Positions 25,277-49,104 of a stretch of 64,000 bases of DNA are shown here, in pieces (position 1 is the first letter of the stretch; each line of letters starts with the position of its first letter). The notes beneath the pieces are model-generated. The model saw only the letters and a list, made by a program, of their open reading frames with translations, had not been told where the DNA came from and ran no database searches. This DNA is from Phoronis australis (Eukaryota > Animalia > Phoronida): positions 426,948 through 490,947 of the forward strand of contig NMRA01000294.1 in assembly GCA_002633005.1 (NCBI GenBank), read 5' to 3'. The translations under genes were made by a program, and so were the position numbers.

Positions 25277-25679
25277 TAATTACACAAAGAAGCACTAAAA
25301 TATTTTGAAAATTACGCGAAGAAAAAGTTGTGCTTTTCAAATGAAAACGCTTTCGTGCGGAGAGGGCCTATATTTTGCGAGTTTGGCAGCCTAATTCTTA
25401 ATAATACGTGACTGCAGATAACACGGATTCATAAAATAAAGTCTGTTTGAAAAGTATACCCAAGCAATGTCATTTTAATTTGATAATACAAATTTCCTGT
25501 GCCTGTTTACAAATGAGAACATAATGACAATCCGCGGTCTGCACACAAATTTGTGTAATTCGCCTAAAGGAGCGGAAATATCCATCAACTATTTCAACAA
25601 TTTTTATAAGCTTGCTTGCAGTGACAGTAAAAAACCTTCCCTATCGTTTGAAACATGTTCAACATTGGATGTCGGAACG

Positions 25680-26526
25680 CTAAATCGGATCATCTTCGAC
25701 GTCTCTTAGCGACTTCCTTAAATACTGTTTTCGCTGGTGTGTAACCATGAGTGTGAGTTCTGTGGAACTTGGACTGTAAGGTGAAGGCCTTCCTGTAGAA
25801 TCTTTGTAGGTTCTGGGAAAACCTTCGCCACGTCTCCTCCAGGTCTTAGGCAAAAACTTTTGTTGGTCAGAAGTACTCAACTCGGTACATAGTTTCGCAT
25901 GATTGCTTGTTCTTGCCATCGCCAGAGGTCGAGCGTTCACTTTGCACGCGATCACAAAGAACCTCCGAAATGCTTGTCGATACCGTTTACTGTACATGCA
26001 ATAAACCAACGGATTTGCACAACAACTTGACAAGCCTAACCACTGTACGTAAGGCACCACGACAAAGACCCAGGGTTCATCGTTGTAATAGTAAATAGTT
26101 GTGATGATGTACAGTGGTAACCACATAAAGATGAACAGCATTTCGACTGTAAGCGACATCTTTAGGACGTTCAATTTGGAACTCTCAATGACGTTGTTCC
26201 TGACCGATACGCCTGGCGCCGCTCTGTGGCAAATACGGATACCAATCATGGTATAGCAAGTGGTAATGATAAACGCTGGAATTGCGTAGCACACTAAAAC
26301 GGTGACGCCAAGAAAGTACTCACGTTTCTGATGGGGCAACGGCCATTTCTCGTAACAATGATAAATGACCTGGCCGTTGGGTTTCACTAATTGGTGTAAG
26401 TTGAAGTAAAGTATCCAGGGAACCATCACAGCCAAGGATGTCAACCAGATAACAGTTATAATCACCCTGGACGCCTTTCGGGATATGCGACGAAGACTTG
26501 GCAAGTGCTGACAGATCGCCAGGTAC
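25680..26526 (-). CDS. SIFamide/NPFF-receptor-like GPCR, distal terminal exon 3b (DRY, TM4-TM7, C-tail)
   Basis: attgtttAG|G TAC CTG GCG ATC TGT completes (D)R-Y-LAIC in phase 2. Open to the stop: VPWILYF, ECL2 Cys, CYAIP, WLPLY, QWLGLSSCCANPLVY. With exons 1-2 gives 412 aa. Confidence 0.88.
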
Positions 26527-26984
26527 CTAAACAATGACATGAAGCAGATTTGCACATGACAATGGCATAGAACGTGTACTACTATAAACCATAAAAATAA
26601 CTTGAAAACCTCTCATAACTGAAAATTTTCAAATTTAACACTTCTTGAGCAGCGACTTTCAACGGTCGTACACCTGGTAAACTGCACACGGCCATGTATC
26701 AAAAGCATAGTTGGTGACGTCAAAAAAGAATGTAAGATGACATCGTGAATCCATGAAATGGACCTGCGCTCTTCATGTCAGTGTGGCTTCCCAACATTTG
26801 TATTGTGTCTATACCGAGCGCGTGACTCGACGTTTCAGACTGCTCTGAACTCCGGCTTCCGGGTAGAGCCTCGCCACGAGAAAAATCTAGCTAACATTAT
26901 GTGCTCTCATTGAAAATGTGCACGACCATATCTTGCGAAATCTTGCGAGATCCTGCTTTCTAATGAGGAGCTATAGTTATTGAA

Positions 26985-27330
26985 TTACACCCGGTACCTA
27001 TACTCTGGCATTACTTGCAGTTTCAGCCTGTACTTTCGGCAATTAATAAAGTAACAAGTGTAGTGAGTATACCGTCCTATATCACCCAACACTGCTATAT
27101 TGGTACTATTACTTCCCACTCTTAAAATGAGCTTACAATATTTAACTTGAACACTTTCTGTCGCGCTGTATGGTTGAAAACCCCAATCCTCTGAAGCATA
27201 ATATAAGATAGGGTCTATGACTATATCAAGTAAATGTAAAGCCGTTACAGCGCACATGCTCTGAACATTTCTATCAAAACCAATTATACTGAACCTGGCC
27301 CTCTTAACCTTTAGTGACACTTCGTCGACA
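26985..27330 (-). mobile_element. RTE-X-like LINE ORF2 C-terminal fragment
   Basis: PILYYASEDWGF...ESVQVKYCKLILRV..NSTNIAVLGDIGRY...KYRLKL resembles the LxYGxEIWG...FCKxxLxV...TxNxAVxGELGR post-RT region. Confidence 0.7.
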
Positions 27331-27674
27331 TTACCAGGATAAGAGTAATGCGAAACTACTTTAATTTTAAAAATGGTTACAATGGGGAAGCACTCAATAA
27401 TTTTGAGGCCACGGCTGAATTTCAAGGGAGGGAATAAACAAATGGTCAGACTTCAAAACCACTAGTCCGGACTTCAAAACCAGTCGACTGGACTGCATAA
27501 CCAAATGGCCGGTGATCAAACGTGTTGTCTGGACTTCAACGCCATGGCCTCACCCAAAAAAACTAGTTGGCTGGACCCAAAACACGAAGGCCGGTGCTAT
27601 AACCAGGCGGCCGGTGATCAAACACGACGAGACCAGATCGCTTTGAATGTCTCGAAGGACTCAAGTGACTCCTA

Positions 27675-28821
27675 CAGCCGATTTCATAAAGGTGGTTTAA
27701 AGTTAAGCCTGGTTTAAACTGGACTTAGACCAGGTTTAAAGATAATCTGCATTTCATAAAGGTGGTTTAACTTTTAGACCAGTGGTCTAGTAAAAGTAGG
27801 TTTAACTCCAGTTTAGACCTGGTCTAAGTCAGTTTTCCTTTCACCAACGAGGTCTATATTCTTTAGACCTGTATTAAGATCTTAAACCATGTTTAACTTT
27901 AGACTTGTTCAGACCCAGGTTTAACTGTTAAATATGTCAGACTTGCATGGTATAGGTACAACTGAATGATGCCGCGGAGTGCATTTGCGACGCAGTTTTA
28001 GAGCGAAAATGGACTATTTTCAATATTCAGTTTTACTATGACACAAGATCAAGCGTAGCAGGGGCAGATTCAGGATTTTTGAAAGGGGGAGGGGATGGTC
28101 AAGGACTTGAAAGGGGGGCCAAGTCAACAATTTGAAAATTATATATTTAATATCACTAAAATCAAGGGAAAAAGGGGACTCCGGACCCCTTGACCCCGTG
28201 GATCCGCGTATGGGTAGACCACTACTTGCTCGAGTGTGTCCTGCAGATTTCTCAGAATACGACTGGTCGAGCAGGGCGTCATCGTGGTAAGCGCTACGGA
28301 TTTGACTAAAGACAGCATCTTCTGATTCTTCTGACTGAGTTCCACCTCCACTGTTCTCCGATATAATATTGCCAGGAAGGGGTCTTGCCCCCCCCCTTTG
28401 GCCGCGGAAAAGAAACTTTAAAATGACAAGGAAATAAATTTGGGCATTTAACATGTTACATCTAATCGGGAGCATGTTCTTTAATGTGTGTGTGTTGGGC
28501 ACAGAAATTACAGTTTTCCTTATGAGAAAAGCTTTTAGATGTTTTTCGTAAATGTCTGCACTGATTCTACTAGTGTATGCCATTGTATACCCACGTGATC
28601 AAGGTTTCATTGAAGCACTTCAATAGTTTCTTTGTTGGGTGCCTTTGATACTTTGAACCTGGTTTTACTCAACCAGCTCCCTGATCTAGCAAAACCAGGC
28701 TTTCAGACGCTTAAACCATGTTGGTGAAATGCAATTCAGGTCTAAAATTAGACCAGGTTTAGGAAGACCAGGTTTAAGTCTTAAACCTGGTTTTGTTAAA
28801 CCACCTTTATGAAATCGGCTG
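27675..28821. mobile_element. TIR element with 3-bp TSD nested in the foldback element
   Basis: Perfect TIR CAGCCGATTTCATAAAGGTGGTTTAA / TTAAACCACCTTTATGAAATCGGCTG; TSD CTA/CTA; subterminal AGACCAGGTTTAA repeats. PIF/Harbinger-like by inference. Confidence 0.85.
28059..28212. mobile_element. Short MITE with 5-bp TSD nested in 27675-28821
   Basis: CAGGGGCAGATTCAGG...GGATCCGCGTATG; flanks CGTAG/GGTAG. Confidence 0.7.
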
Positions 28822-31633
28822 CTAGTGTTTACTTCGTACCCGTTTGTTTTTGTGGTTCCAATCGGCGATTTGTTCGGCCGTTGTGTGTGAGCACCGGCCA
28901 ACCCGTTTTAGGTCCGGCAAACCAGATTTTTGGGGTGTAGTCATCTGGTTTCGAGGTACCGGTCAACATGTTTTGAGGTTCCACCACCACGTCAGAACAT
29001 CGGCCATTAGATTTTGCAGTTCAGCCAGCTGGTTTTGAAGTCCTGGCAAGTTTTTTTAAAGTCCCCCCCTTGAATTTAGCACCTCCCATTGGCAACTACC
29101 AGTTTGGCAGAGCATTTTGTCGTGTACTGCGTGCGTCCTCTGAACAGAAAATGATAATTCTAAACCCTTCGAACGATTTTTGCCCATTCGCGACTTTTCT
29201 GAAACCTCTAGTACAAGCAAGAGGGAAGTTGAAATTTAGCCATGGCGACACTTCAGATTTGTGAAAAAAATCGTCAGGTCGGCGTATGCTTTTCAACGGT
29301 GGTAGATTTTGGCACACTGAATACACCGTGTCTCCGCATGAGAATGATGGCTTTTGGGGATAATAACGGCTGATTTGATGCATTTTTCTCGCCTCTTAAG
29401 TAGCCGGCTGCACTAACAGTAATCGCCAAAGGTGCAAAAACTCATTTGGAATCAGTTTTATTGTTGTAAACCTATCATCATTATTGCACATTTCATTCGT
29501 GTTTCCATTCAGCGCGTCACTCATAAAAATCAATACTAATACTCAGTGGTTTGTCATGTTATAAAAATACTAGGAATTAATCTAGTGCAAGGCAATTACA
29601 TTTATATGCTCAGGCATTTACAACAATTTATTGGAGATAGTGAGTGTACGAGGCACCGACGGGAGAGCTAGTTACACTGTGTAAGGGACTTTTATATCAC
29701 TATAGGTATATCTTCAATTACACAAATCAATAGGCTCGGTGCTGTTGACTCGCAAAGCATTGCAAGTTTCACAATACATGATGAGCTCATTCGTTGAAAT
29801 ATCTAGTCATGCATCAATAATTGCAATAACGAATTTGGATTGTATGCACTGCATGAATAGATTAATTTGTGTCACTATTTGTACATTTAACTGTGGGGTT
29901 AAACAAAAATAAAATCTTGTTTACAACAATGTGTTTATTGTTTACTTCATAACCTTGTCAGACCAAAGTGTCCTTCCTCGGGATTATAAAGGGCAAATTA
30001 ATGGCAGCCAGTGATAAGATAAGACAAAATCAAAAGGTGTTTGTTAGCTCATCGTTATGAAAGGGAAGCCACCTATACCTGCTTCCCGTTCAGTAACACT
30101 AGGACCTCGCTAAAAAGCAAGACTTCACTAGATTACGTGAGATATTGCCGTGTATTTTAAATACGAACACTTGACTTTGACTAGATTTTAGCTAGGTCCT
30201 AGCGTACATGTAGGTCCTAACGTCTACTGAACGCACGCCTGCTTTGGTGCACTGAAGTAAAACAACGAGGGCGGCCATCTCGTAAGATATTCTAGAAAAT
30301 ATTTTGCGAGTAGGATAAAGGTCAGCACGATTCATGAAGTTCGATGGCTACCAGGGGGAACTCCACAATGTGGTATCGTATCTCCAAGTCTCTACAAACA
30401 GAATCGCGAACTGCCTTTCAGTGCAGTTAGTTTGTCATTACGTTGGCCACCGGCTGGTTGTTCAAGACTACATAGCTAGATGACATCGTCACATAGGTGT
30501 GAGAGTAGTTGGTGGTCACGTGACACATCAACTCATTTCTCTGACTCCGGCAAGTAAGTGTGCAAAAATGTCAATTAATTGGTCCAGTCTCATCAAGTTT
30601 ACGTAACTATGGAAAAGCATGACCTATACAAGTGTCTTTGAGCATATTTCACCAGCTGTCGCACTCACCAAGAACAGTTTAATCATAATGTGACGGCAAA
30701 ACCGTGAGTGGGCTACAGACAACATGTTCGTTGTTTGGGCTAGCCAACTAACTTCTAGCCACGATTTCTTCGAAAAGAGCAGACGGATTTTGTCGGTGCT
30801 TGAATTTTCAGACAGCACGATCATTCAATACGAAAACCGATTTTCGATTATAGGTTCATTGATTTTTTTTCTGTTTGATTTAGGATTGTTGTTGTTCTTG
30901 AAAAGGTGATTGCAAAAAGGGATATTTTCCAGATTAAAAAACAGTTCGTTTTATTCAAAATCCCAGGCGCGGTTTTGGAGCAAAATGCCAAAGTTTTATC
31001 ATCCAAAGTCTTAATAATGAAGGTTAAAGGATCAAAATTTTATTACCTTTCAAAAATAGATTTTTTTCACCTAAACCGCTGATTAACGGGACCCCAACAA
31101 TGGCACAATGTTGTGAATGACATAGGTGAGTTTGTTTTGGCTTCTACTTTCAGAAAATATAATATATTTTATACATTGATGGGTTGACAGCGGCTAGTTA
31201 ATAAGATATTTTGGGATAAATATAGCATAGCAATTAGGAGTACACGTGATTTAATCACAGTTCTTTCTACAACTGGTACAAGTGTAGTTACAGGAAATTA
31301 ACGATCATGAAGTTGATGAACAAAAAGTTTCATTAGAGTTATATTTAATGGATGTTGGGTAATCAATTAGTTACTAAATACAATCAATCTCTCTCCACCC
31401 ACACACAGTCACAAAACAGTGTTACAAGACCACAGTCTTATAGTAATGAGTCTTGCGCTGCACTCACTTCGTCAAACTCGGCTTTCCAAATTAAATTACA
31501 ATATTAAAGCTATTCATTTCATTGTACAAATTCGGCCACAGCCCGAAGGCTATCATTTGGTATCAAAGTCGTTGAAAACTGCGATTTGCTGTTTGTTGTC
31601 AGTATTCTTCTTTGGTGTCTTTTGCCAGTTTTA

Positions 31634-32128
31634 ACAAGGGAGGAATCAACAAATGGTCGGACTTCAAAACCACTTGCCCGGACTTCGAAACCACCTAGCT
31701 GAACTGCAAAACCAAATGGCCGGTGTTCTAACTTGGTGGTTGGACCTTAAAACAGGTTGGCCGGTACTTCAAAACCAGATGACCTCACCAAAAAAATCTG
31801 GTTGGCCGGACCTAAAACGTGGTGGCCGGTTCTCAAACACAGTGACCGCCGATTTTGAACAAAACAAAAAAAACGGGTACGAAAAAACACTAGATGTCCC
31901 TTGAATCCATCGAGCCAATCAAAGAGAGTCTCTAAGTAAGTCCGGCCGTCGGGTTTGGTCGCCGGCCAACTGGTTATAGCATCGGTTATCGTGTTTTGGG
32001 TCCAGCCAACTAATTTTTGAGTGAGACCATCGCGCTTTGAAATCCGGTAGAAACGTTTGAACACCTGCCATTTGATTTTGCCGTCCAGATGACTAGTTTT
32101 GAAGTCCGACCATTTGTGGACTCCTTGA
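31634..32128. mobile_element. Foldback-type element, uninterrupted copy, just 3' of GPCR exon 3a
   Basis: CAAGGGAGGAATCAACAAATGGTCGGACTTCAAAAC...GTTTTGAAGTCCGACCATTTGTGGACTCCTTG inverted ends with internal repeat units. Confidence 0.8.
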
Positions 32129-32183
32129 GTAATCACATTTCTTGTTTCATTATAATCCCAAAAGTCGATTCCAATCGATAACT

Positions 32184-32949
32184 TTAAAGGTGCAAGCTTT
32201 TCTTTGATTGAGAAAAGCCATTGTCGCTGTTAGTGAGTTCGTTTCCGTTTAAACAGTATCTCTCTTTTAGCAGCGATGACTTTTCGGCCTTTGAGTTCAC
32301 AACGACGCTCGTGGGTTGACGTGTTTTTAGGGGCTGCGCACGTGACACGGACACGTTCTCCAGGGAATAGGTCTTGGAGCACGTCATGGTTCTTTTGAAT
32401 CCCTGACGGTATTTCTTGCTGAAACATCCATACACTAGAGGATTAACACAACAACTTGAGAGGCCAAGCCACTGAACGAAGGGCACTAAATTAAGTAGTG
32501 TTGGAGACGGGTTCGAGTCTCCTAATATCACAAAGCCGGATATTACGTACAGTGGCAACCAACAGAGTGCAAAGAGAAGCACGACGGTTATGAGCATCTT
32601 CAGAACGCGAAGTTTTGATCTATGTACAACATCCGCAGAATCTTGAACGCCGGGCACTTCACGGCGACAAATTTTCACGCCAATCATGGCATAGCACATG
32701 GAAATCATCAACAAGGGGATAGCATAACATATAAGAAGAATTACACCAAGAAAGTAAGCTCGTTTTCCCGGCCATTCACTCTCGTTGCACGCATAATAGG
32801 TACCGAGTTCATCTTGGTACGTGCTCAGTTTGAAGAAAACCAGCCAAGGTGAGATGATGGCAGCAGAACCAATCCAAATACATATGATGATTACTTTCGA
32901 TGCTTTCGCCGAGATGTGCAACCGAAGGGTCCAACATATTGCAAGGTAC
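32184..32949 (-). CDS. SIFamide/NPFF-receptor-like GPCR, proximal terminal exon 3a (DRY, TM4-TM7, C-tail)
   Basis: catttcAG|G TAC CTT GCA ATA TGT, phase 2; SPWLVFF, ECL2 Cys, CYAIP, FALCWLPLY, QWLGLSSCCVNPLVY, FSKKYRQGF. With exons 1-2 gives 385 aa. Confidence 0.92.
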
Positions 32950-33354
32950 CTGAAATGGTGGGTGTATTAGATGGGTACATGTATGCTAAAGCGTTAGTGT
33001 TGTTGCATTTCAAACGTTTTGATGACACCAGTCCACAGCATGCCAACATATTGCAGCTACCAAAGCGCAGTAAGCAATTCATAGAATTTACATTTTTGTC
33101 GTTTTAGTTTTATCCAAAGTGTTCTTAAAAGACGTTTAAATTGTTTCTTCACATAAAAAGCAACCGCGTTTCTTTCTAAAAGTTTGTGATATTTCTTTCT
33201 ATTATTTAGACTTGAAAGTGCGATATTCAGATTTGAAGGAAATGACTCATGTACAGAGGTAGATTATTCGAAATCCACTTTTTCCATGAAACACACATTT
33301 AGCCAATCACATCTCTCCAATTGTGAGTTTTGTATGAATATGGGCTCAAAAATT

Positions 33355-33852
33355 TTCAGGAAATTGTCATAAATTCTGTAAAATTTATCTGTCATTCTCT
33401 CTCACTTGTAAATCATCGATCTTCAGTGTAAATGTGGATAACATGTCGGGATCCTTTGACTTGGACATTATACCCAGTAACCAGGGGTAACCTACTTTAG
33501 CCGACGATATTTTCACGGTGGAAGTTTAGCGTGATAAAATGAGTACAGGCAGTAAGCAAGACTGGCTGCTTAAAACTTATTTCATAGATTTATTTTATTT
33601 CTATTCTGTTTAAATTTTGAATTGGTTTTGAGAAAAAAAATATTTTAACGAGAATTCCTTGGCGTTTCTTAAAAGATCACGACCTCAGACCCCGGACCTC
33701 TGACTCAGAAAGTAGTAACTAAGTGCAAGCGAGTCGAGAAAGATAGACCGATTCATTACAATGTTTATCGTTCAGTATGTGTTAACGCCCCTCAGGCGAT
33801 CATTCTCCAAATTCCACCTCGGGATAACGACTTCGCCATGTAATAATCTACA
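33355..33852. repeat. Dispersed repeat copy (inverted relative to 39275-39845) with collapsed terminal palindrome
   Basis: For example, TTGTAAATCATCGATCT and GTCGGGATCCTT are reverse complements of motifs at 39720-39780; ends CATGTAATAATCTA. Confidence 0.75.
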
Positions 33853-34480
33853 TTTATTTCGCGCTATCATGGGAACATTTAAACTTTTTGTTTCGTTTAC
33901 GTGAAATACGACCGCCTTTGATGTTCGGAGGTACACAGTAACTGGCGAACCCTAGTATCGAATGATAGTGTTAGTGATCGTGAGTAGTCAGTCCTAGACG
34001 TCTTTGTATCACAAGGCATGAGCTTCGTCCTCCAGACAGACGTCATAGAGTCACAATTTCACATATCTTGGTTGAATTACGGCCACTACTGCTTGCCGTT
34101 AGCCTTCAATGTAAACTTTATTGTGTTTTTTCTCCAGTTAAAAAAATTGAGCGTAAAGGCTGGAGTATGAAATAACGAGCGAAAAATACGTGCAATTCTT
34201 GAGAGCTCACGTGACCTACTAATCAACTTTTCATTGGATGTAACGATTAAGGTGATATAACGCGAGCAAAGTCTCAGCCCAGTTGACCTATCGCAAGCTC
34301 CGCCCCCTTGCAAAATGTCGACAGACAAACAATAAATTTTACACGGTAACGAATTGTTTGTCGGGTAAAATGGCGACTTGGAAACAAGGGTATGTCAAGA
34401 ATGCTTCGTTGTGATTGGTCAGTTAAGCCGTCACTCAAACTTCTGGCGATAGGTCACGGCGACATTTCCCCACGAATGGC

Positions 34481-34548
34481 CCATGATATAGTTCAGCGGT
34501 AGTGTGTGCAGATGCTATTGCTGAGGGTTCGATTCCGCTCACGGCTGA
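34481..34548 (+). repeat. tRNA-derived SINE-head-like sequence
   Basis: A box TAGTTCAGCGG, B box GGTTCGATTCC. Confidence 0.5.
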
Positions 34549-34624
34549 TTTATGCATTATTGCTCGCCGAGATTGTCCCTTTAATTTGCCATGCGTTATT
34601 ATCATGCCTTGATAGGACGCACAT

Positions 34625-34815
34625 GTGCGCACACACTCAGTGCAAAAGTATTCACTATGCATACAGTGCGCACACACTCAGTGCGGAAGTATTCATTATG
34701 CATACAGCACTTGTTTTAATGCGGCATTAACCAATTACACGTTTACTAATATTACTAATATTACTAATACTACTAATATTACTAATACTACTAATACTAC
34801 TAACATTACTAATAT
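34625..34815. repeat. Two-copy ~41-bp tandem duplication followed by (ACTAATATT/ACT)n simple repeat
   Basis: Directly visible. Confidence 0.85.
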
Positions 34816-37800
34816 CAAACAATCCTTTCTTATGTTCCACGATTTACGTGATAAACGAATCGTGCAATTTTTTCCCAATGGCACTCTTTTTTACGAAAAT
34901 TGGTCATAGTTTCTGGGACAAAATGGCAAATCAGTTAATTGACGTTATGGCTATCTCTGGATCCTAATACAATGTGGGAATAGGCGACTGGATTTCTTTT
35001 GAAGCAAATAAAGTGAATCTATCTATTTTGTAGGGGTACATTATTTGGCATTAGTTTTATGTTTATTAGCAAAGTCAAGCAATCAATAAAAGTCTTGCCA
35101 AAACAAAGTGTGCAATGTCATTATGATTTTCCTGATTTACGAGCAGTGTGTATGTCGATCTCCAATCGTATCTTCTACTCCATTAACATTGCATTTTAAT
35201 GCGTTGTTAACATTTGGAACAATCAACTTAGCCACGTGCAGCACGATCTTAAAAACAAGTAAATGCCTCTGGAGACAGTTAGGACTTGCTCTAATACTGT
35301 TAAGTGGCGTTCCTAATTTGTCGTGTTTACACGGGGAGATTAGAATTCATAAAGAGTACTTCTGTGGTTCGTTTTTTTCTGTGGCAAAATTTGATTTATT
35401 CTAGCTGCCAGCGGACTTTCTTGGGCCTTGGACTTGTCTCAGCATGTGGTTCTGTTTTAACTTACTAGCAGATATTAGCTGCGTCAATTTCAATAAATCG
35501 TCAAGACTGCACAATTCTTTACAAGTCTCGGCAAAGATTTGGACTAAAGTTGTAACCCTTCCACAACCAGGCAAACGCTTTGGAAGGACGTAAATCGAGG
35601 ACGTTTAAAGACCGAAGCAGATCCAAACGACAACGAAGAGGGGGAAGTGCTTTTGCTGAAAAGAGTGTTTTAGCTCTCAGTGCACTGCAAGTACTAAATA
35701 CACGTTAACAGATGAAAGGAGTTAGTTTGGGGCAAAATTGCTAAACAGGGTTTTTAAAATATCATTTTAAATGGCAAATTCACATCAGGAAGTTGGTATG
35801 CTGTACAGTATTCGCTCTGTAGTAATCTGTTCTTCGGAAAGGCTCGTTATGAAACTTACCACAAAGTAAAATAATCTGTAAATTTATGAAAAATTAGTGG
35901 GGAATAATAAACCAACCTTAAACAAGTGGCCTATTATCATTTGAACTGATGTAGTTTAGGCTATGCACTTTGCCACTTGGAAAAATTTTCAAAAACGGTT
36001 AAAACGATCGGGAAGATAATCAACAGAAACAATAATACGTCGAGTCAGTGATGGCTCTGTGGGCTGAAAAGAGCTCATTGTATTGGTATTTCTCTGTTGC
36101 AAATTTGGTGTTTGAGGTTCGGTAAACTTTTTGGTTTTGTATGGTTTACATAATAGAATGGTCACCCTAAATTGCGTCTGTCAATGGAATAACACGAATA
36201 GATTTGACAAATTGTGCTAACATAGCAAGACAGCTGGGAAATTGCACAAACCATAGTGGCCATAGTTTCGACACTTCACTCAAGCTAATAATTCCAGCCA
36301 ATCGGGTCGCGGGAACTTATAAACGCAAGGATATATAGTCCACCGTGTTAGGTCCCCAAGCATTGGTTGTAAAGATGGTTTAACGATGAACTTGGAACAC
36401 TTCCAATGCTGGTCAACGGTATATAGAGAGCAACAAAAGGAAATAACTGCTGTTGAAAAAAGTAGAAAAATACACGAACAGATGAATATATGTCTGACGT
36501 GCGTTCTGTACGAGAAAAGTAACAACTCGCAAGACTTCTCGAGATATCAGTTGCCATGTATTGCAAGCCAAGCACGTGATCACACTAGCTTAAAATTCTT
36601 GGATCTACCATACTCTAAACTGGATAAATCGTAGAATCTATTATCGAGTAAGTCTGGACAAACAAGGCAAAGTGAGCGAAAATTGTCTTCACAACGTTTC
36701 GCAAATATTTGTATTTTATTTCTGTTAAAACGGAACATGTATCTTATGCGAATCAACGCGTGGGTCTATGAATGTGGACGGTTTCGTAACTCACGGAAAC
36801 TTCAACCAAGACACTTAACAGTAGACTCCTGGACTCAAAATCTTTCAAATGTAGTCAAATTGCCTGGAAGTAGTTTTTCTCACTACAATTTGGGCCATCA
36901 AAGATCTTTCCGTAGCAGACACCAAATCTTGTTGTGGAACTTAACCCCTTCATACCAATGTCACACACATGCTTGAATTCGGTTATCATCAATTTTGTAT
37001 GATATCTTAAGTATTTCGTCTTCAATTTGTGTACTTTCAATCAAGAAATAGACGCAAAAAATAACAAATTAAATTTTTTGTGACGTTATCGGTGGTTCCG
37101 GTCTCCGCCATTGTGTTGTTCTGCACCAGCCCCGAGCCGTAGTGGTATCGAAAACAGAGTTCGAATGAGTATAATGAAAAATTGCATATGCGGAGGAATA
37201 ATTTTGGAACAGACAAGGCAGAAACGAGTATCATTTACCATAAATAAAATCCAGTTAGCATCACTATAATTAGATGTCATCGTTCCTGACAAAGGCACTC
37301 GGCATTCGATGAAACGAAATCAGTGTCCGTCATTCGCGAGTGGGCTTTGACAGATCGGTTAGATTTACAGTTCGAGACACATAATAATAATAGACACCCC
37401 ATCTCCTTACATGTCTTCATAATACTCGTCAAGCTCGCTCTCTTAGTCTTCGGAACTTACACAATCACTACTACCCGCCATTGCATGTATACTGTCAACT
37501 GATCAACGTCTTCCACTGATGAAATCACGTTGCGGTAAACAAAAAATCTGTTCATTAATTTTTCTTCAGAGTTCAAAATTCCTCAACTGCTTCGCAAAAT
37601 AAGTGCTTGTTAAGTTAAATTTCATGTTATAAAGTTATTATACAAGGTATAAAACCTCAAAAGTGCAAAAATCCATTTAGGAACGCTTTAAAGAGTGAAA
37701 TGAGAAACAACTACTGCTCCGACCGCGTCTGTTTGAATGGATCAGACACCCGCATGGATGAAGGTTGGCGTGTCAAGGGGATATGAATAGGTTCAAAGAC

Positions 37801-39274
37801 CTGGAATCGCAGATATGCAACTGCGTGCAACAGTTTGTTTGCTTTCTCGGGACCCATTTTGATAAGTCAACTCTGGCAACGGTTTGAGTGAAATGTGATC
37901 AAAACACATCTTAGAAAATCTTGCTGTAGTACGCTCGCAAAGGACTTCCGGCTTTGTGTTTGCGGGACTTCGCAAACCGTAACTATGGTAGGTGTGGCCT
38001 AACTGCGTTTATCTGAATTGTCTATTGGAGCCGGTTTCGAGTACTTTCATATCATGCGTCGCGTTCAGTTATGGAAATTCTGTTTTCTGGTTTCCTTACT
38101 GGTGACATGCAAATTTAGACTAAACTAACTCATTACTTTCTCATTCAATTTCATTAGTATTGAATTGGTCTACATCTCTTGACACTACAGCACGATGACA
38201 ATTGTACGTGCAACCACTCTATAAAAGCCATTTATTTTTTAATTGTGAATTCTACAACGCGCGTCTTGAAATGCCAGAACAGGGCCATAGGAATTGTGGT
38301 GAAACCGCGGCAACCAGCATAGGCGTATGGTCGGAGGCGGTCGAGAAAAAACAGCGAATCATGTAATAGAAAGAAAATTCAACAGATCATTTGTCAACTG
38401 CCGATGCTTGGCCCAAGCGACGACATTTTTCTTAGGGATACATCATTTTGCAGTCGTCTATCACGCAAGCTTCGAAAAAAATACGAGAACACTTGCTATC
38501 CACAGATTTTTCAGACCAAATTGATTCGGATTTTCAAGTTCAAGATGGCAATTTTTAGGGAAAACTGTATTTATTCGGAGACCCTTCTTTGGCAAGGGAT
38601 ATTAGAGTCTTATGTTGAACTCTTCCTATGTTTTTTGTTAAAACTGTATTTCGCTTATAAAATTGTGAGTCTGACGGAGAGGGCTCTGAGGATAACATCA
38701 AATGTTGGACATTTTCTGTTTTAGAAATTATACATCTTTTCATATTTAGGGGCTCCAGCCCTAATAGGGGACCGTTGATTCATAGCCAACCTGTTCCTTT
38801 TTATTCATATCCTTAACACTCACGGCGGAGACTCTAACAATATAATAAGTTGATTCTATTTCCTGCTTTTGTGAAATTGACAACCTTTTATGTTCACCTT
38901 TTGGAGGGTCACCCGATGATGGTTTTAACTGTAATTCTTTTTCAGTTTTTTAATAATATAGCTTTTCAGATGGGTCCTCTCTTCAAGGGGCGGATAGGGC
39001 CAATTGCCCTTTGCCCCCCTGTAAATCCGGCAATATGGGCTATTCACGAAATAGAAGTACATTTTGATAAGATTTCAAAATGGTTGAGAATACCACAGGA
39101 CACGGTGGTGTGGAGAGCAGCAGCAACACGACACGCGGCTCACACAACCAAAAGAGAAAAAAAACCAATAGCATGGACCGCCATCTGAGGATTGAAGTAT
39201 GAATAATTTGAAAACAATTACTTGAAAATTAGGCAAAGACAAAAATAATAATTAGTAGATTAGATTCTAAGAAA

Positions 39275-39845
39275 TATAGATTATTACATGTTCTAAGTCG
39301 TTATCCCCCGTACTCTAGAGCCCGAGTGGATTTTGGAGAATTATCGATAATTCTCCAAAATTCACGAGGGCTCTAGATAAGGGGGTAACGACTGAGAACA
39401 TGTATTAACCTATTTATACCACATACTGAACGAGAAAAATTGCGATGAATCGATCTACCTTTCTCGACTCGCCCAGGCTTTGTAACTACTTTCCGGGGTC
39501 CGAGGTCGTGACCTTTTAGAAAAACCGAGCTACTTTTGTCAAATAATGCTTTTACTCAAACCCAATTGAAAATATAAACAAAATAGAAAGAACGTTAATA
39601 TATAAATTAAGGTTTAGCAACTATTATAGCTTACTAAACATTTTATCACGCTAAGCTTCGACCGAGAAATTGTCGTCTGCTGAAGTAGGTTACCACTGGT
39701 AACTGAGTATACAGTGCTCAAATCGAAGGATCCCGACAACACGATACCCGCATTTAAATTGGAGATCGATGATTTACAAGCGAAAGAAAATGAGAGATAA
39801 ATTTTACTGAATTAAAAGACCGTTTTTATGAAAATTATGTGTCTT
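39275..39845. repeat. Dispersed repeat with a ~120-bp terminal palindrome
   Basis: Palindrome 39285-39404 followed by a body homologous to 33355-33852. Confidence 0.75.
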
Positions 39846-40404
39846 ATCTTTCATAGCGTATAAATATCGGTACAATGCCCTTTGTTAAACATGCAATTGT
39901 TGAGCGTGCTCAACATTACTTTATAGTTGAAAGCCTGGATATAATGGTTCGCTTTCTGGGCTACATATTTGTATTTCAATGTGTTGTCATTTATTTGTGT
40001 AGCAATAAAAAATCTCGAGTTATGAACATATATTGGTGTATACATACTTCGTAGAATCGGGACAGACAATCACTTCGTTAGTCATTCTTCATTGTGAAAA
40101 GCCCTCAGATACTACTGCTAATTCCTGTAGTTTATGGTAAAATAAGGAATGGTGGGGGCGGTGCCCTTGTGATGGTTGTGACAACTATGTCAGTATTGTT
40201 AGTAAAGACTCGAGTCCGCTTCAAGAAAACGATTTTTAAGTCTGACATAAGTTTTTGATTTAACTTTGTCTTAATATTGACTAACTTCTCGGACGTGAAA
40301 GTTTCGAAGTTTGGAAGCTTAGGCAAATCTTAGACTTAGTCAAAAATGAACGTAACGGGCCCCAGAGAAGCGAGGATATGGCATAAGTTTATACAAGAAA
40401 CTCG

Positions 40405-40620
40405 CGTGTTAGTAGACATAACACTAGCAGTGGGCGTGTTAGTGGACATGACACTAGCAGTGGTCGTGTTGGTGAACATGACACTAGCAGTGGGCGTGTT
40501 AGTGAACATGACACTAGCAGTGGTCGTGTTAGTGGACACGACATTAGCAGTGGGCGTGTTAGTGGACATGACACTAGCAGTGGGCGTGTTAGTGGACATG
40601 ACACTAGCAGTGGGCGTGTT
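40405..40620. repeat. 30-bp minisatellite (GTGTTAGTGGACATGACACTAGCAGTGGGC), about 7 units
   Basis: Directly visible. Confidence 0.95.
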
Positions 40621-41849
40621 CCTACGTCTCACTGATGTTCGTAGAGCTAAGCAACTTTCAACTGAATTTGTTTTTCTTCTTTTTTCTCGTTTTGGGATAT
40701 AGAATTCACGGTTGTGATATGCAGGCTGAAAGCTGCTGACAATATAACCACTTGTCAATACAAGGTAAATGGTGATTTTAAGCACTTTACATAAGCTGCG
40801 TTTCTCCCTATAACTGGCTAAAAGCGAAAATCTAATTTTACCGACCTCAAAATTTTCCTTTCCGTGAGTGGACTTGTTTTCTGTTACTAAGAAAAACATG
40901 CAAACTATCAACAGGTGAAGAAACGCGTCGGCAAATTGTTGATTTAATGGGGGTTCGACAACCGTGAAATTAGAAAAAGGCCACCAGGGACTTCCACTCG
41001 AAAATAGGTCAGCCACGGGACCCTGCGACCATTTCCTGTGAGTACATCGCATATCAGCTGTTGGTCTTGGTTCTTCAGTTAGGAGCTCTAAATATGCTTA
41101 AAGTGACAGCTAAACAGGGCGAAATACAGTTTTGACCAATGCTTTGACTGTGTCACGATGACAAAACGAAAACAGCAATAACACTTTATAAAGAAATACT
41201 TGACTGAGGAACTGTTGGCTGCGGACGTTATTGACTCCACGCCAGTACAGGTGACACGAGGAGTCCCTGTGAGGGCAAGAAAAGGAGTCTTATCACTTGG
41301 ACTTTATGTTTGTGGGAATAGGGTATAGTTTCCTGTGCTATTTATTAGTTACCGATATATAGCCGCTGAAGATGCTTGATTGAAGTTCAGGTAAACGTCT
41401 GAGTAGTGTTTAGTTAAATGTGTATATCGAATTGTGTATGTTCTAGTGAAAACTATTGTTTTATTTCTATTATTTTTCGTTACCGGATAATCATTCAGGA
41501 CAACGAGGCCTCCATTAGCTAGTACAAGAACCTGTTTACAAATAAAAATATTTTATACTGGCGTCATATTCGTACAAATAAGGATGGATGAAAACTGGGA
41601 AAATGATGGATTACTCGCGTATGTTAGGGTGACATTATGCGGGTTTGTTTGAAGTTACAGCTGAATGAACAGAGAACCAACTTTATCTTACGCTTTCTTC
41701 TTCTCTTCTGGGGGTTCATTACAATATAGCAACTGTTCAATCATAAGATCATTAATCAAATGACTCCACAATCATTTGCGTCACTACGTCTCCTGCAGTT
41801 ATTTGGAATAACAACATGGCAAATACATTTTATGTAACATGTGTAACTA

Positions 41850-42010
41850 GTCACAAACGTTTTAAGTCTGGTCTGCACTCCCCCTGTTGGCCACATCATG
41901 TGACCTATTGAACATAAGTCTGAAAAGATTTCTGACCCCGACCGGTACTCGAACCAAGGACCTTCTGCTAACCGTGCAGACGTTCTAGCCACTGAGCCAT
42001 CGGCGACCAA
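41850..42010 (-). repeat. tRNA-derived SINE-like element
   Basis: Minus strand GGTCGCCGATGGCTCAGTGG (A box)...GGTTCGAGTACC (B box) plus a non-tRNA tail shared with 42192-42315. Confidence 0.65.
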
Positions 42011-42191
42011 CGGTCACACACAGAAATCCAATCAGACTTACTAGTGGGCATCCCGCCTGGGCGGCCATAAACTCGTGAGTGTACATATGTAAATCCTGAA
42101 CCGGCGTGGGAATACAAATCACTAATTACATTTTAAGTCTAGTCCTAACGCCACCTGTCGGATACATCACGTGTCCTTATGAACATAATAT

Positions 42192-42315
42192 TCTGCACGG
42201 TTACCATAAGGTCCTGGGTTCGAGTCTCGGTCGTAGGCAGAAATCTTCAGACTTATGTTCATTAGGTCACGTGATGTGGCCAACAGGTAGCGTGCATACC
42301 AGAATGTTTGTGATG
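42192..42315 (+). repeat. 5'-truncated second copy of the same tRNA-derived element
   Basis: TCTGCACGGTTA...GGGTTCGAGTCTCGGTCG...CAGACTTATGTTCA...GTGGCCAACAGG. Confidence 0.65.
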
Positions 42316-44848
42316 TGTATTTCCACGCCGGTTCAGCATTTACAACGTGTAACTAGTCTTGATGCGATTTATTTTAGGAAGTCGTGGGCAATTGTAGCGC
42401 TCATTTGAACACGTTCTGTTTATTTACTCGCTATGCGCTTCGTCTCCAACACCTTTAAAAAGGATTACTCATCTCCCAGTGGTGCTCCCATTAAAGTGGA
42501 ATACGAGACGTGCCGTTCAAAACAGTGACTTTTTACACTGCGAAAGGGGACCTTTTCTGACAAAGACTCAACGAATGTATCGCTTTTCCAACAAAATTAG
42601 CCAAAAAGATTCACTTCAGGACTTAACTGACATTCTAACCAATCTTCAGAAGTGTTTTTATGTTATCTGCACCTTTAAACTTTGATTGACAACATACACT
42701 GTTTCAGGCTTAATGGGTTAAAAATTCAGCTGTCCATGAGTCGATACGAAAAGGCTCGGTTTATGACAGTAAGAGGGTGGCGTTTCTGAGACAAACCCCT
42801 ACAAAAGGGTGCCTTTTTATAAAAGCTCCCTATAAATGGGTCCTATTTTTCGATTACACTCTCTAAACAGGCGGATATCCAAATTTCCAGGAGCAAATTC
42901 CAAGTCGAATACTCGCGGAACTAAAAAACGATTTGGTGATTTTAACAAAAAATGATTCTATCATCTGGCATTGTGTCATTAGTGATTGCCCACAGTATAA
43001 AACTGTTATTCAGCGAATACTCTTTTTCCTGCCGCAAAAGAAATCTGTGGTTCTATATGATTGTTTTTCCCGAAGCTGTAGATTAAGCCAAAAATAGTGG
43101 GTTCTGTGTTGAGTTCCGAAGACGCAGAAATTTTGCGAAGGAAGCTAGTGTGATCACGTGCTTTCCTTATAGTACATGGCGATATCTCGAGAAGTCTTGC
43201 ATGATTTTACGTTTTTGCGACTTCGGCGCGTCTACGGAACACATGCCTGGTCTACGCCCAGACTGATTTTGAAACCTGCGCCTCGCGACTTAAAGAAAAT
43301 GGACTCGAATTTCACACAACGTAAGCACACAAGGTTTTAAACGCTATGATTTGTTAACTCAACCACCTCCACATCACCAATAGCCGACAATGACTCAGAG
43401 CCTTGCAACCACGAACTGTGATTTCTTTACTTAAGTCGCCGCCGAACCCTTCGTGACTATTGTGATTTAGCAGACATTGAAGGTTGACGAGGTGTACGTT
43501 GTGATTTACCTTTGACCAAATTCCAACCAGAACGCAGGCGTAATATCGTAACACCAATACAGATAACGTATATCAATGGGTTCTGTTTTACGAAAAGTGC
43601 AAAGCTGTGGATTCGTGACACCTATTCTATCAATAAAAAGGCTTTATGCTCAGTAATTTATCGTGTCTGGAACAATCACAGTTTAGTTACAAACGAAAAC
43701 ATATACCGCTAATCTCCATCACACGTCTGATTTTTTAGAATCATCTATCATTTTATTTCAAAGTGTGGTATTAATTGCCAATAAAAATATCACAAGGTCG
43801 ATGTACTACTTTTAACGTTTACCAGTAACTCTATGGGAAAGCCTGCCTCTGGGATAATTACTTATTGTTATTTAAGATGGCTGTTATAGTGACGCGGTGA
43901 AAAACTTAATTAATAAAGGACTTATTAACGCCCGGGATAATGTACTGAAGATATTCTATTGCAAGCAAATTGGACATACGATCGCCATTTGAAGTATTTC
44001 TGAACTTTTGATTATTACCAAAGTGACACAGTGCATAATAGCTCATGGCCAGTTTGAAAATAGGTCTCGTGCTAACACAGAACGCAAATTAGGCCGATGT
44101 CGAAGGAAGAATGTGTGATCACGTTGTTTGCTTGTAATACGTGGCGATATATCGCAAAATCTTGTGTGAGCTTGTTTTTCTAATGCTCTCGCTTCTACGG
44201 TGCACACACCTGATTTGTCAGCATTAATAGGTACCGCTATGTAATTGGGAAACTTAGCTGTGAGACCACACGATCGCTACAACAACTTGAAACATTTCCG
44301 GATAGCTAAGGCATTACTCAAAATGCCCTCTGTTTATAATAGGATGTACCTGCCTCATTCTGCCGGTTCAGCCACATCAACCGGCTAAAACATCGGAATG
44401 ATTTATAAGCCAAAAGTCGTCATTGAGAACCAAACAGCCGTCTTAACCGGTTGTACCGGCTGAATTCCGGCTGGGTGAATCAATTCCATAGACGTGTGTC
44501 AACTAGTCGGCACCTCAAAAAGTTCGGTATTCGAGCTCCGACTTTCTTCCCTGTGAGTTTCTACGAAAAATATCTCAGTGAGGGATCGAAACATTGTGCA
44601 CCTTTTCCTAGGAGAATCTAAGCGGATGGGGGCTTCGTGGATGCTCACGAATCACACTTTTCCCTCTATAGAAAATGGCGATAAAAAACACACGCCTGTC
44701 GAAAAATAGTTAAGGGCAGTCCTTTACGAAATTGAAAGTTTACCAGTTTACTGTTATACCTTTAAATGCATTTTTGTGCATGGACGTTTTCACATTTAGG
44801 CATGCCAGCAACATTCCAGGTGATGATTGACGTAATGACTTATCTTAC

Positions 44849-44948
44849 CTGTCGAGAGCTATAACGGCGAGGGTGTTTACAGATGCGCTAACGACCACTC
44901 CTTGTAGAAAAGGCGACACTTTACACAGAAATGAACCGAACGGGTAAC
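44849..44948 (-). CDS. SIFamide/NPFF-receptor-like GPCR, exon 2 (ECL1-TM3)
   Basis: Not in the ORF track. tgttttatAG|GT TAC CCG...GAC AG|GTAAGA; 100 nt, phase 1 to phase 2; (S)YPFGSFLCKVSPFLQGVVVSASVNTLAVIALD(R). Confidence 0.93.
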
Positions 44949-47320
44949 CTATAAAACACAAAACATAGGAGATACGCATGAAATCTGTTTCAAATAGAAT
45001 TTTACATTACAAACGTTGAAAAGTATATGTGCGTGCACGAGCGTGTGTTTGCGTGCGCATGCGGGCGTACCCGTGCGTTCGTGCATCTCGTGTGTGTACG
45101 TGTGCTTGCGTGCACCTGCGTTTGCTTTCATGCCTGACTGATTGCATTCATACATACGAGCAATGTCCATTTGTACGTCAGTGCGTTTGCGTGCGTGAAA
45201 ATGACATGTCCATCAAAATAAATTTGAGGTTGAGATTTTTAAGGGGGTGCGACGGGTGTGAACGCACCTTTCCCCCCTCCTCCTGTTGGCAGGTACCACC
45301 CATTAGCAGTTCAGGCCCGTCTAAACCTGAACTTTGTCATTTTACACAGCTCAAAAAAGGAAGTACACCATTTGCTTATTTGCTTTTAATTTCTAAGAAA
45401 TTGAGAAATGAACATAATTCAAGCATGTACTAAGTTCTCAGTAACACAAATACGCTTAAAGACAACACCGCCTTCAAAATCATCTGAGGAAGATAGAATC
45501 GGCAGAAGGCACTATTGTCCAGTATAAGAATGCCATCAACTTTCCCAAACTCATGTGGTCAGTAGGAAACGTCATAGAGAGAAAAGGGCTTTAAAAAACT
45601 AATAAAACGATTAATTTAAACAGTTGAGGTTCACGATTTCGTTGAGGATCATCAAGAAATAAACTTAAAATTTTAAGAGCGCGCATTTACGTGTTTTGAA
45701 CTGGTGTAAAAATCACTCGGTCATGAATCTAAAATGTTTAGTAAATTTGTGAACATTGTCATCAACTGATAGTGCGGGTATTAAACAAACTTTTAGAGGT
45801 GCATTTTGTTTTAATCACTACCCAGCATGTAAATCATGAAGCACTTTGCTCAAAGGCGAACGATGCTTAAATCCTTTCACAACCGCGCTTTGTCGGTCAT
45901 CACTTTTGAGAAGGTTGGCCAACCCATTCAAAACTGAACAATTTCAAGTCAATGGCAGGTAACCTTTCAATTCTTTTTGTTGGTAACAACCATCTGCTAA
46001 CATAGAAAGGGGAACGTTCAGACTAACATGAGACAACTAATTCAGTAATTCCGATGTTTAAGTCATAAATGGAAATAAAATGCACAGTGGGCCTAACGCC
46101 GTGTTTCGCAAACAGTGAGCCTCTAATTAAATCATACATTTTGTGACTCGCGTATTTCGACATTATTTTGACCTATTTTTCTTAAATACACTCCTTCCTT
46201 TTACGTTCACCAAATTCATAACACCGGGTGAGTTTCGTCAGTCGAAAGATGTCACTAAACATTCCGTAACTTTCAGCCCTGTTTGTGTTCGCCACATTTC
46301 ACCATTATTTTGTATAGTAGGCGGCTGTTGAGTGAGTGCCCATAATGCATTAATCAACTGCCACTACCTACGGCGGCCATTTTAGGTGGTGATGCACCAC
46401 ACAGATTAATATTAAGCTAAGAAATTCATATTCAATTCAGTTAACTTTGAAAATGTTTGGAGTTGTGTTCAATATAATTATCATTTAGGCTAAGTATCGA
46501 CTAACTTGCGTTAAAACTCTTTTATGAAGTTTTTAACTACAAAGCTGAAAGAGTATCGCTAAAACTGGGCTCTTTGTAGGGATAAAAACTTGCATAAAAA
46601 GACATGCATGAGTGTACTGCGTTCAGTTTCTTGGAAATTAGGGACTAAATCAAAATGTGCAGTTTAGTTGTAAGCAGTTCAGTAACCCCTGACGGATGTG
46701 TGTGTGAAGGGCCGACGACACGGTGAGTGAAACAGTTGAGATGTAGTAGTCGACCGAGGCAGCGGATGAGAGCAAGACTGAAGGTTCCCAAGTTGCAGTG
46801 GCTAGCTACCTGCTTGTGTGGGCAGAAGAATGACGAGCAAAATGAGGAGCGACTGTTAAATGTGACGTAACCGAATCTCCTTACCGGCACGTAAGCAGAA
46901 CGCCCGATGAATTGTAGCTCTAATTAAGGCATATCACCAAAAGCTTTTTATGACTTGTAATTCAATCTCATTTAGGTTAAACAAGCATGAACAAAATTAA
47001 CTTTGATCAATTACCCGAGGAAGCCTCGGCACACAAAAGTTAGCAGCCTTGGGGAATTGACAAAGGGTTGACAACACTGCCCAGAGTTCCACTGAGATTA
47101 AACGAAAATCTGTGGCTTAGAACAAAGAAAGCCACGTGCCTGACACGTGCCTTGTTTCATTGTGTCACGTGGGTCAAAGGTCCCTCGTCGAGGCATGACG
47201 CCTGGGAGAACAAATTTAAAGGACAACAGAAATATTCATTTCAAAAAATTTTCTTTAGAAACTGCGGATCCCCTTCGACTAAATACAGGCTACCCGGACA
47301 CCCCACCTGCCACACTTTTA

Positions 47321-47757
47321 AGTTGCATTTACGCGAGCGACAGCTGACACGGAACAACTAACACAGAACAGCTGATCGGGTGCAAGTGTGTGTTAACACA
47401 ACTGACACGGAGCACGATGACACCGCAGAGGCCGTTTTTGACATCAGTTTGATAGGTATAAGCGAAATGCACTCAATCAGTAGCTTCAGATTCAACTACA
47501 CGACTTGTAACACCACTGGGCGTATAGGGATCATGCATTTTTTAATACTCTTGCACAATACCTATATACGGGTGATCCACTGGCATTCCACGTGGTTTGG
47601 ACGTTTTCTATTGTTTATGTGAGCATGCCTAGACAGTATTCGTGTAAATGACTCATGCTGATCCAGTTTGTGATCTAATGTAATATAAAATGGAGCAAGT
47701 CGCGCCGTGACAACTGACACGGGGACGACTGACTGTCTATCGTGTAAAAGCTGCTTT
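47321..47757. mobile_element. Possible degenerate MITE with internal CAACTGACACGG repeats
   Basis: GCATTTACGCGA...TCGTGTAAAAGCTGC imperfect inverted ends; recurrent CTGACACGG motif. Confidence 0.35.
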
Positions 47758-48812
47758 GGACATACACTAGCTAGCTTTCAAAGTAAACTAAATAGTAAGT
47801 AAATTCAGGAAAGATTCTGCGCAGGAATCAGCAACTAAATATTCTTTTATTTTCGACTGGACTCCCTTTCAATCATTAGGGGCTCTCTGTAGAGTAATGA
47901 TAAATCCCAACTCAGCTGGTTTGGTTTGTATGATGTCGTGTATAAGATTTTTCTTTCTGGTGATAAAGCAAATTATAAAATGATGAGAAATGTGAATGAT
48001 TTCGATTCCCAGAGACAAGCATCAGCTTCAAAGCCTTATCTGAAGCTCCTCACGCCATGAACAAACTCATTCGTTTGTTTTGTTTTATGCTTTAAAAATA
48101 GAAATCCCTTAGGGTTTGCCCTAATTCAGACCAACTACCCCCCAACCCCAAAGTTCGCTTTTGCATAAAAGACGAAACATTATGGCGTTTTCCTGTTGCT
48201 CCCAACTTGTTCGATTCTATAGCCCAACAACAAGTTGGGAAGATCACCCCTGTAGCTAATATCTTACACGACTCCATTCTGGCATTTTGAGGTTGGAGGG
48301 CCTGCTCTCTTTTGTTCGATAATTGCTCTAATCTCAGATCACATCGTATCTAACCTGACTGGTCTGTACTGCTAAAAATGAAAGTTAATTTACGACATCT
48401 TTAAACATAAACCAATAGCATTTCTAAATTCCTTGTCAAATGCTGATCATTTTTAGTTTTTGAATCACCAAAATCGCCCAACTACAACAGAAGTTATGAC
48501 AATTCATTCTGCCAGGTTTCAGTAACCATTTGAAGCCTGGGAGATGAATTGGCCTACTTCTTATCATACGGGACATAAGACTGTGCTGGGCAGTTAACAA
48601 AAGAGCCAGATGTTATCGTACGTTCAGAACCCCTCACGTCTGGAAAAGTTGCTGAACGACAGAATGCCGTCATGAAGGTAACTTGTACCCTAGACGGAGA
48701 AATATCGGTGAGTAAAACACAATGAGAGTCTTGGGAACAGACAGCGGACTTGGTTTCACTGCTGGGTAGACACTGAGTTTCCTTTCCTGAACGAAACTGA
48801 GCTTTTACTTAC

Positions 48813-49104
48813 TTGACAGTATGTTCATTATCAGAGTGGTCGGAAGACAGAAGATGGATACCAATATGTCTGCCACGGCCAGGTTAACTAGCAGGAAGTT
48901 AGTCACGGTGTGCATGCACGAATTCTTGTACACAACTCCAATCACCAAACAATTGCCAATGACGGCGAGAACGAAGACTACGCTATACAGTATACACAGT
49001 ACCACGGTAACTGGAGGAGAGTGTATGAATATCCCATTGTCATCACCAGTGTCATTTCCGGTCATATCACTACCATTATCCCTGATGCTATAGTTAACTG
49101 ACAT
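48813..49104 (-). CDS. SIFamide/NPFF-receptor-like GPCR, exon 1 (N-terminus, TM1-TM2)
   Basis: ATG 49104; N-glycosylation sequons NYS, NGS, NDT; IGNCLVI, MHTVTNFLLVNLAVADILVSIFCLPTTL; GTAAGT donor at 48812, phase 1. Confidence 0.93.

Follow-up and report, generated by a model that had tools for sequence, protein, structure and literature searches.

Two homologous last exons alternatively joined to common TM1-TM3 exons in a SIFamide/NPFF-type receptor gene of Phoronis australis

Alternative 3' exons in ETH receptors and in another receptor family

Splice variants of GPCRs usually trim tails or break the receptor, and a swap of two-thirds of a receptor between intact, selected copies is so far known mainly from insect ETH receptors (ETHR). 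In Bombyx, the ethr gene is described as carrying two common coding exons and alternative exons 3a and 3b, which start from the end of TM4 and represent about 60% of the protein (PMC8175484). The resulting ETHR-A and ETHR-B are reported to respond to one peptide with sensitivities that are about 20-fold apart, and to be expressed separately (PMC8175484, PMC3510462). The family considered here has been described in other terms. SIFamide receptors are given as the protostome orthologues of NPFF/GnIH receptors, with lophotrochozoan SIFamide-type peptides ending in LxFamide (PMC4062910); SIFamide-type receptors are reported as general in lophotrochozoans (PMC8557429), and those of arthropods are described as duplicating as whole genes (PMC4244043, PMC4237046). 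Human NPFFR1 and NPFFR2 are likewise two genes, whereas the locus described below has two exons. Searching the literature by title and abstract, we found no prior report of such SIFamide/NPFF receptor isoforms, although supplements might list them.

We analyzed a window of 64,000 nucleotides (the whole stretch of DNA under study), which contains a SIFamide/NPFF-type GPCR gene on the minus strand, with one exon for TM1-2, one exon for TM3, and two complete last exons, 3a and 3b. An earlier note on this DNA had likened it to ETHR-A/B, and the comparison is apt, as common 5' exons are spliced alternatively to two last exons, each complete and homologous to the other. As far as the ETHR accounts go, both systems involve a single gene, two common coding exons, and two duplicated alternative 3' exons, which encode about 60% of the receptor in Bombyx and 66-68% in the present gene. 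They differ in the switch point, which lies at the end of TM4 in Bombyx ETHR and inside DRY here; ICL2 and TM4 are therefore swapped too, unlike in ETHR. They also differ in history: ETHR-A and ETHR-B are described as conserved across arthropods as separate A and B clades, while 3a and 3b group most closely with one another in our sample. Finally, the ETHR isoforms are described as assayed, while 3a and 3b are known from sequence and RNA. That the gene is itself an ETH receptor can be discarded, as all its named close matches are SIFamide/NPFF-receptor-like and its switch lies in DRY (the trees contain no ETHR). The ETHR-type design thus appears, from sequence comparison, to have arisen separately here, in another family.

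Exon structure and splice junctions

The first coding exon (48813-49421, minus strand) comprises a 317-nt 5' UTR, the ATG at 49104, the N-terminus, TM1, and TM2. Its coding part (49104-48813, 292 nt) matches positions 1-47 of Pfam 7tm_1 and ends at a GT donor, from which reads lead to exon 2. The 5' edge was placed from an AG acceptor and 20 reads with a loose end at 49423 (data set X4, see below). As these reads depart from the window sequence at that point, the gene starts upstream of the window, with a 5' UTR exon outside it; no match to this upstream exon was detected in the window within 3 mismatches. Exon 2 (44849-44948, minus strand, 100 nt), common to both isoforms, encodes ECL1 and TM3 and ends after two bases of the DRY Arg codon. 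Both last exons, also on the minus strand, encode the end of TM3, ICL2, TM4-TM7, helix 8, a tail, and a stop. The coding part of 3a (32184-32949, 766 nt) has a 67-aa tail and yields isoform A (385 aa), and that of 3b (25680-26526, 847 nt) has a 92-aa tail and yields isoform B (412 aa). Both acceptors are AG and interrupt the DRY Arg codon at an identical phase, and both frames are open, with one terminal stop each. The class A GPCR markers D2.50, DRY, W4.50, P5.50, P6.50, and NPxxY are present, and the larger pieces all score above the Pfam 7tm_1 cut-off, covering profile positions 1-47 and 64/83-260, with exon 2 filling TM3. When re-read from the sequence, the coordinates, phases, and product lengths that the earlier note had given for the four exons all proved correct.

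A profile of 17 full-length relatives, searched against the 2801 six-frame segments of the window, identifies exactly four 7TM pieces (E 5e-74 to 3e-15; next best E 1). There is no second TM1-TM3 front half among them, as previously noted. Moreover, the window contains no N between 13042 and 64000. We could also rule out that 3a and 3b are allelic haplotypes, since they are 51% identical and both lie in line on one gap-free stretch.

Splicing was evaluated in four RNA data sets bearing the same species label: assembled contigs from a second study (X1) and three raw runs (X2, X3, and X4), about 18-19% of each raw run being read. One pass covered 25200-45150 at a likeness of 90, joints being taken from the best 15 of 54, and another covered 30600-50500 at a likeness of 96, all 6 joints being taken. 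The junction from exon 2 to 3a (44849>32949) is found in all three raw runs at a likeness of 96, with a total of 15 reads (X2, 5 reads from 5 starts; X3, 2 from 1; X4, 8 from 7), and in no X1 contig. The junction from exon 2 to 3b (44849>26526) is found in X4 with 7 reads from 7 starts (CT..AC on the plus strand, skipping 18322, among the joints listed at a likeness of 90) and in one X1 contig (depth 16.6), with no reads in X2 and X3 among the joints listed at this likeness in the 18-19% of each run. A 316-nt X1 contig runs from exon 1 through exon 2 into 3b, of which it includes 53 nt. Exon 1 is joined to exon 2 by 6, 6, and 17 reads in X2, X3, and X4, respectively; the 8 (3a) and 7 (3b) reads of X4 are comparable to the latter number. 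In all junction reads the first mate is on the plus strand, as expected for minus-strand RNA. Both junctions singled out for checking in the earlier note are thus seen, and its central proposal, one gene with alternative duplicated last exons that are both spliced, is supported.

The 3' ends could be placed approximately. Stranded depth over 3a is 3.5-7.5 in the bin 31264-31927 and falls to 0.08-0.91 in 30600-31263, so that coverage runs about 0.9 kb beyond the stop and drops near two candidate poly(A) signals (ATTAAA at 31349 and 31255); from this depth and these signals, the 3a 3' UTR would extend over 31255-32183. For 3b, an X1 contig spanning 25462-25834 and an ATTAAA at 25479 place the 3' UTR at 25462-25679. 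Given this drop on one side and the UTR contig with its signal on the other, 3a and 3b are alternative last exons, each likely ending at a separate poly(A) site. In terms of depth, 3b accounts for 0.17, 0.12, and 0.42 of output in X2, X3, and X4, respectively. The junction counts (3a:3b) of 8:7 in X4 and 7:0 in X2 and X3 together give a borderline contrast (Fisher P 0.051, with counts from two passes at different likeness cut-offs), a hint that the choice is sample-dependent and regulated.

Family placement, divergence, and the ligand pocket

The named close matches of the gene are labelled SIFamide receptor-like or NPFF receptor-like (automatic labels). In a tree of 115 rows, 3a and 3b sit inside a lophotrochozoan SIFamide-receptor-like group, next to arthropod SIFamide receptors (98 SH-aLRT). 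We also built a more careful tree of 42 back halves, hand-picked from these rows to span clades and using the back half only, with no ETHR and no deliberate outgroups of other RFamide types; it separates the lophotrochozoan group from the arthropod rows at 100/99. NPFFR is the closest characterized vertebrate receptor for both halves of the gene, NPFFR1/NPFFR2 being the best PDB sequence matches (exon 1, E 1e-18; 3b, E 1e-20). The predicted fold of 3b, obtained for the half receptor from a 35-row alignment and informative on topology only, comprises four helices, an ECL2 hairpin, and helix 8, with NPFFR2 as the best solved match. Trees, match labels, and structures thus agree with the family proposed in the earlier note, and by sequence the gene belongs to the SIFamide/NPFF/GnIH receptor family, class A; its predicted ligand would be a SIFamide/LxFamide-type peptide.

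Within the same clade, lophotrochozoan SIFamide receptor-like proteins (Lineus XP_064627956.1, Owenia, Liolophura, Haliotis, and Patella) share 36-49% back-half identity with the gene. Several lophotrochozoan gene models start immediately ahead of the DRY Arg and apparently read through an intron, suggesting that they have the same intron. A single exon after DRY is apparently also found in molluscs, where gene models start at that point. Mollusc and annelid relatives in the sample carry paralogues that are whole genes (in Babylonia, two proteins with identical TM3 encoded on different contigs, of unequal length; in Owenia, two proteins) as opposed to the exon pair observed here. Unlike them, 3a and 3b both carry N7.45S and an Ile-Cys change at the end of TM5, and 3b has further changes in TM5 and TM6. 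Among 189 proteins of relatives, 61 of which are long enough before DRY, no pair combining a common front half with two back halves was detected; this screen is a weak test, as it includes no close relative. The 33 pairs that are at least 90% identical just before DRY turned out to be close orthologues, cross-species matches, or the two Babylonia genes on different contigs. Querying the longer proteins with exon 1 was uninformative (1 of 137 candidates matched).

The two last exons are sisters in both trees (99/85 with 42 rows; 89 in the quick 115-row tree), so the duplication looks specific to this animal's lineage. They share 97 of 192 aligned residues (51%), with identity ranging from 22/31 in TM7 and helix 8 through 20/32 in TM5, 18/35 in TM6, and 11/24 in TM4 to 5/16 in ICL3, 7/26 in ECL2, and 2/15 in ECL3; the C-tails do not align (best E 0.95). 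The earlier note had estimated about half identity by eye, with loops and tails nearly unrelated, and had suspected an old duplication with both copies selected; our measurements agree. Over 185 codons, pS is 0.73 and pN 0.36, with a saturated dS of about 2.6, a dN of 0.49, and a dN/dS at or below about 0.19; of 37 fourfold sites, 9 are identical, which is the chance level. Compared with 35 relatives, 3a and 3b keep 36 and 33 of 39 highly conserved columns, respectively, and 22 and 16 of 85 variable ones. The low dN/dS with saturated synonymous sites and the conserved columns kept in each copy indicate that both have been under purifying selection for most of a long history.

In NPFFR2, the peptide amide and Phe are described as being held by 2.61, 3.32, 3.36, 5.42, 6.52, and 7.39, and the Arg by 45.52 and 5.39, with subtype selectivity attributed to 6.58, 7.31, 7.32, 7.35, ECL2, and the N-terminus (PMC12069643). 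We assigned the corresponding positions by counting from conserved anchors. The earlier note had proposed that exon choice swaps most of the ligand pocket, but this mapping does not support it: T2.61, Q3.32, and V3.36 are encoded in the shared exons and are common to A and B, and E45.52, F5.38, L5.39, Y6.52, V7.35, and Q7.39 are identical in 3a and 3b. The two exons differ in ECL2, ECL3, and the tops of the helices; the differences at individual positions (3a/3b) are N/Y at 45.51, I/T at 5.42, V/Y at 6.58, and I/Y at 6.59, and also concern 7.28, 7.31, and 7.32. As the anchor positions are common while these seven differ, A and B are predicted to bind the same peptide class with a retuned preference. 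Compared with human NPFFR1/NPFFR2, T2.61, Q3.32, V3.36, and E45.52 match, whereas W6.52 is replaced by Tyr, T5.39 by Leu, and D2.64 by Met; His 7.39 of NPFFR is Gln here and in 35/35 lophotrochozoan relatives.

The claim that both exons keep all core motifs also needs correction. The CWxP and hydrophobic-lock residues are intact in 3a, and 3b keeps F6.44, W6.48, and P6.50. However, 3b is changed at four positions whose conservation among the 35 relatives is 90% or more, and where it also departs from 3a: L5.51A, L6.37S, V6.41E, and Met at 6.47. Position 5.51 is Leu in 35/35 relatives, and Ser 6.37, Glu 6.41, and Met 6.47 each occur in 0 of the 191 fetched proteins matching the TM6 pattern. Positions 5.51, 6.37, and 6.41 are described as belonging to the common class A activation pathway, in the transmission switch, microswitch, and hydrophobic lock, respectively; in A2AR, loosening changes are reported to have raised basal activity and L6.37A to have lowered it (PMC6954041). 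The enrichment of 3b changes on this pathway (3 of 4, vs 14 of the 39 columns) is post hoc and not significant (P 0.12). As 3b lacks some core motifs, isoform B may signal differently or be decaying.

Alternative readings and a possible mechanism

The RNA reads show one gene whose shared TM1-TM3 exons are spliced to one or the other of two last exons that arose by an old duplication. We consider it fairly probable that both products are working receptors, predicted to recognize the same amidated peptide end with different selectivity and signalling. A rival account, in which 3b is part of another gene, a paralogue with its front half absent from the assembly or located elsewhere, or in which the arrangement is a mis-assembly, has some precedent in the whole-gene paralogues of Babylonia and Owenia. 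Yet in samples with alleles that differ from the assembly, reads and a contig connect 3b to the window's own exon 2, with 1 difference, and exon 1, with none over 162 nt, and the window has neither a gap nor a second front half in this region. This account is largely refuted and very improbable, and none of the three outcomes by which the earlier note thought its proposal could fail (an unspliced 3b, another front half, a mis-assembly) has come about.

The changes in TM5 and TM6 raise two further possibilities. It is unlikely, if still conceivable, that 3b was long a working alternative exon but has lately lost constraint, isoform B being spliced but signalling-dead or decaying. The four radical changes at near-invariant sites, one of them a charged residue mid-TM6, would fit such a decay, as would a branch twice as long as that of 3a (1.14 vs 0.53 in the 42-row tree) and the low share of 3b in X2 and X3. 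In simulations, a neutral exon of 200 codons remained open in 1.3% of 2000 runs at a divergence of 0.2, which speaks for the reading of two working receptors, and in 23% to 6% at 0.05-0.1; recent decay is compatible with an open frame, since a short neutral spell can leave it intact. Nevertheless, the frame, acceptor, and UTR of 3b are intact, 33 of 39 conserved columns are kept, and in X4 the share of 3b in the output of the gene reaches about 40-45%. Moreover, the at least five coding differences listed from the reads comprise two synonymous changes and three replacements, all three in the tail, with no stop or frameshift among them. Rather unlikely, too, is that selection has kept isoform B as a non-canonical partner, either a ligand-independent active receptor or a non-signalling scavenger or modulator of A. 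The conservation of anchor positions alongside changes at 5.51, 6.37, and 6.41 points in this direction, and Thr 5.55 could pair with Glu 6.41; however, the pathway enrichment is that post hoc one, the direction of effect of the changes is unpredictable, and the Glu codon (26144-26142) could represent an allele or an error in the assembly. In a bolder and quite improbable version, exon choice would flip the receptor between a ligand-gated 3a form and a 3b form with a rewired lock (Ala 5.51, Ser 6.37, Glu 6.41), which would signal without ligand or act as a built-in modulator in a tissue-controlled ratio, making it a second independent origin of the ETHR-type switch.

Under the favoured reading of two working receptors, the near acceptor and the poly(A) site of 3a would compete with the far acceptor of 3b. 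As the last exon contains the entire sequence after DRY, stop codon and UTR included, a tandem copy of it would be in phase and usable at once. Isoforms A and B are predicted to differ in pharmacology or signalling. By analogy with NPFFR2, the differences in ECL2, ECL3, 5.42, 6.58, 7.31, and 7.32 would retune which family peptide fits best; a new ICL3 and tail would alter coupling and desensitization, and the 3b changes at 5.51, 6.37, and 6.41 would shift the activation balance. This case, in a spiralian-type animal according to the tree, suggests that the design can re-arise where one exon holds everything after DRY. The A/B pair forms a natural chimera, with the same N-terminus and TM1-TM3 and two TM4-TM7 halves, so that determinants of SIFamide/NPFF selectivity and activation become directly testable. 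In addition, some invertebrate gene models that look like an "orphan back-half" may in fact represent alternative exons.

A further exon piece, non-homologous to the receptor exons, is located at 36252-36379 (minus strand). It is spliced to 3a through a GT..AG joint in one X1 contig (depth 25.2), with 0 reads for this joint in X2-X4. The strongest candidate acceptors for its 5' edge are at 36446 and 36449, and its inclusion after exon 2 would end the receptor frame early, a stop being encountered with all seven candidate acceptors tried.

Transcript variants and untranslated regions of the receptor gene

Exon 3a of the receptor gene, which encodes the 385-aa isoform A, is also found spliced to a non-homologous piece located at window:36252-36379 (minus strand), as seen in one contig from a single RNA sample, X1. 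This piece could be a poison cassette, or it could be an alternative start silencing isoform A. The 3' UTR of exon 3a carries a dispersed repeat (window:31635-32108), of which further copies are present at 27423-27735 and 28767-29064. As this repeat lies within the 3' UTR, a share of the read depth of the latter may derive from other loci. At the other end of the gene, three upstream ATGs, at 49316, 49231, and 49202, lie in the 5' UTR carried by the first coding exon (window:49105-49421, minus strand).

Related receptors in Owenia fusiformis

Two SIFamide-receptor-like protein models of Owenia fusiformis, P0037 and P0039, are sisters and lie on contigs of equal length. One of them is an incomplete model without the TM1-2 exon, and a separate TM3 exon appears to be present for each.

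Other open frames and a retroelement remnant

A short open frame at window:6277-6567 (minus strand) appears similar to the N-terminal portion of a medium-chain acyl-CoA synthetase exon; a Pfam search of this frame returned no match at E 0.1. On the plus strand, opposite to the receptor gene, an open frame at window:14336-14698 starts like a signal peptide and also includes a coiled coil and a Thr/Pro stretch. It is followed downstream by a Cys-rich frame (window:21518-21847), which, judged by eye, looks like a Ly6/three-finger-type exon. Both frames possibly belong to one secreted protein gene; Pfam gave weak coiled-coil matches for them and nothing else. Finally, window:53722-55534 (plus strand) carries a broken retroelement remnant, in which weak reverse transcriptase/RNase H matches precede a tyrosine recombinase-like frame (Pfam matches at E 0.012, 0.07, and 0.0016), and which we infer to be DIRS-like.
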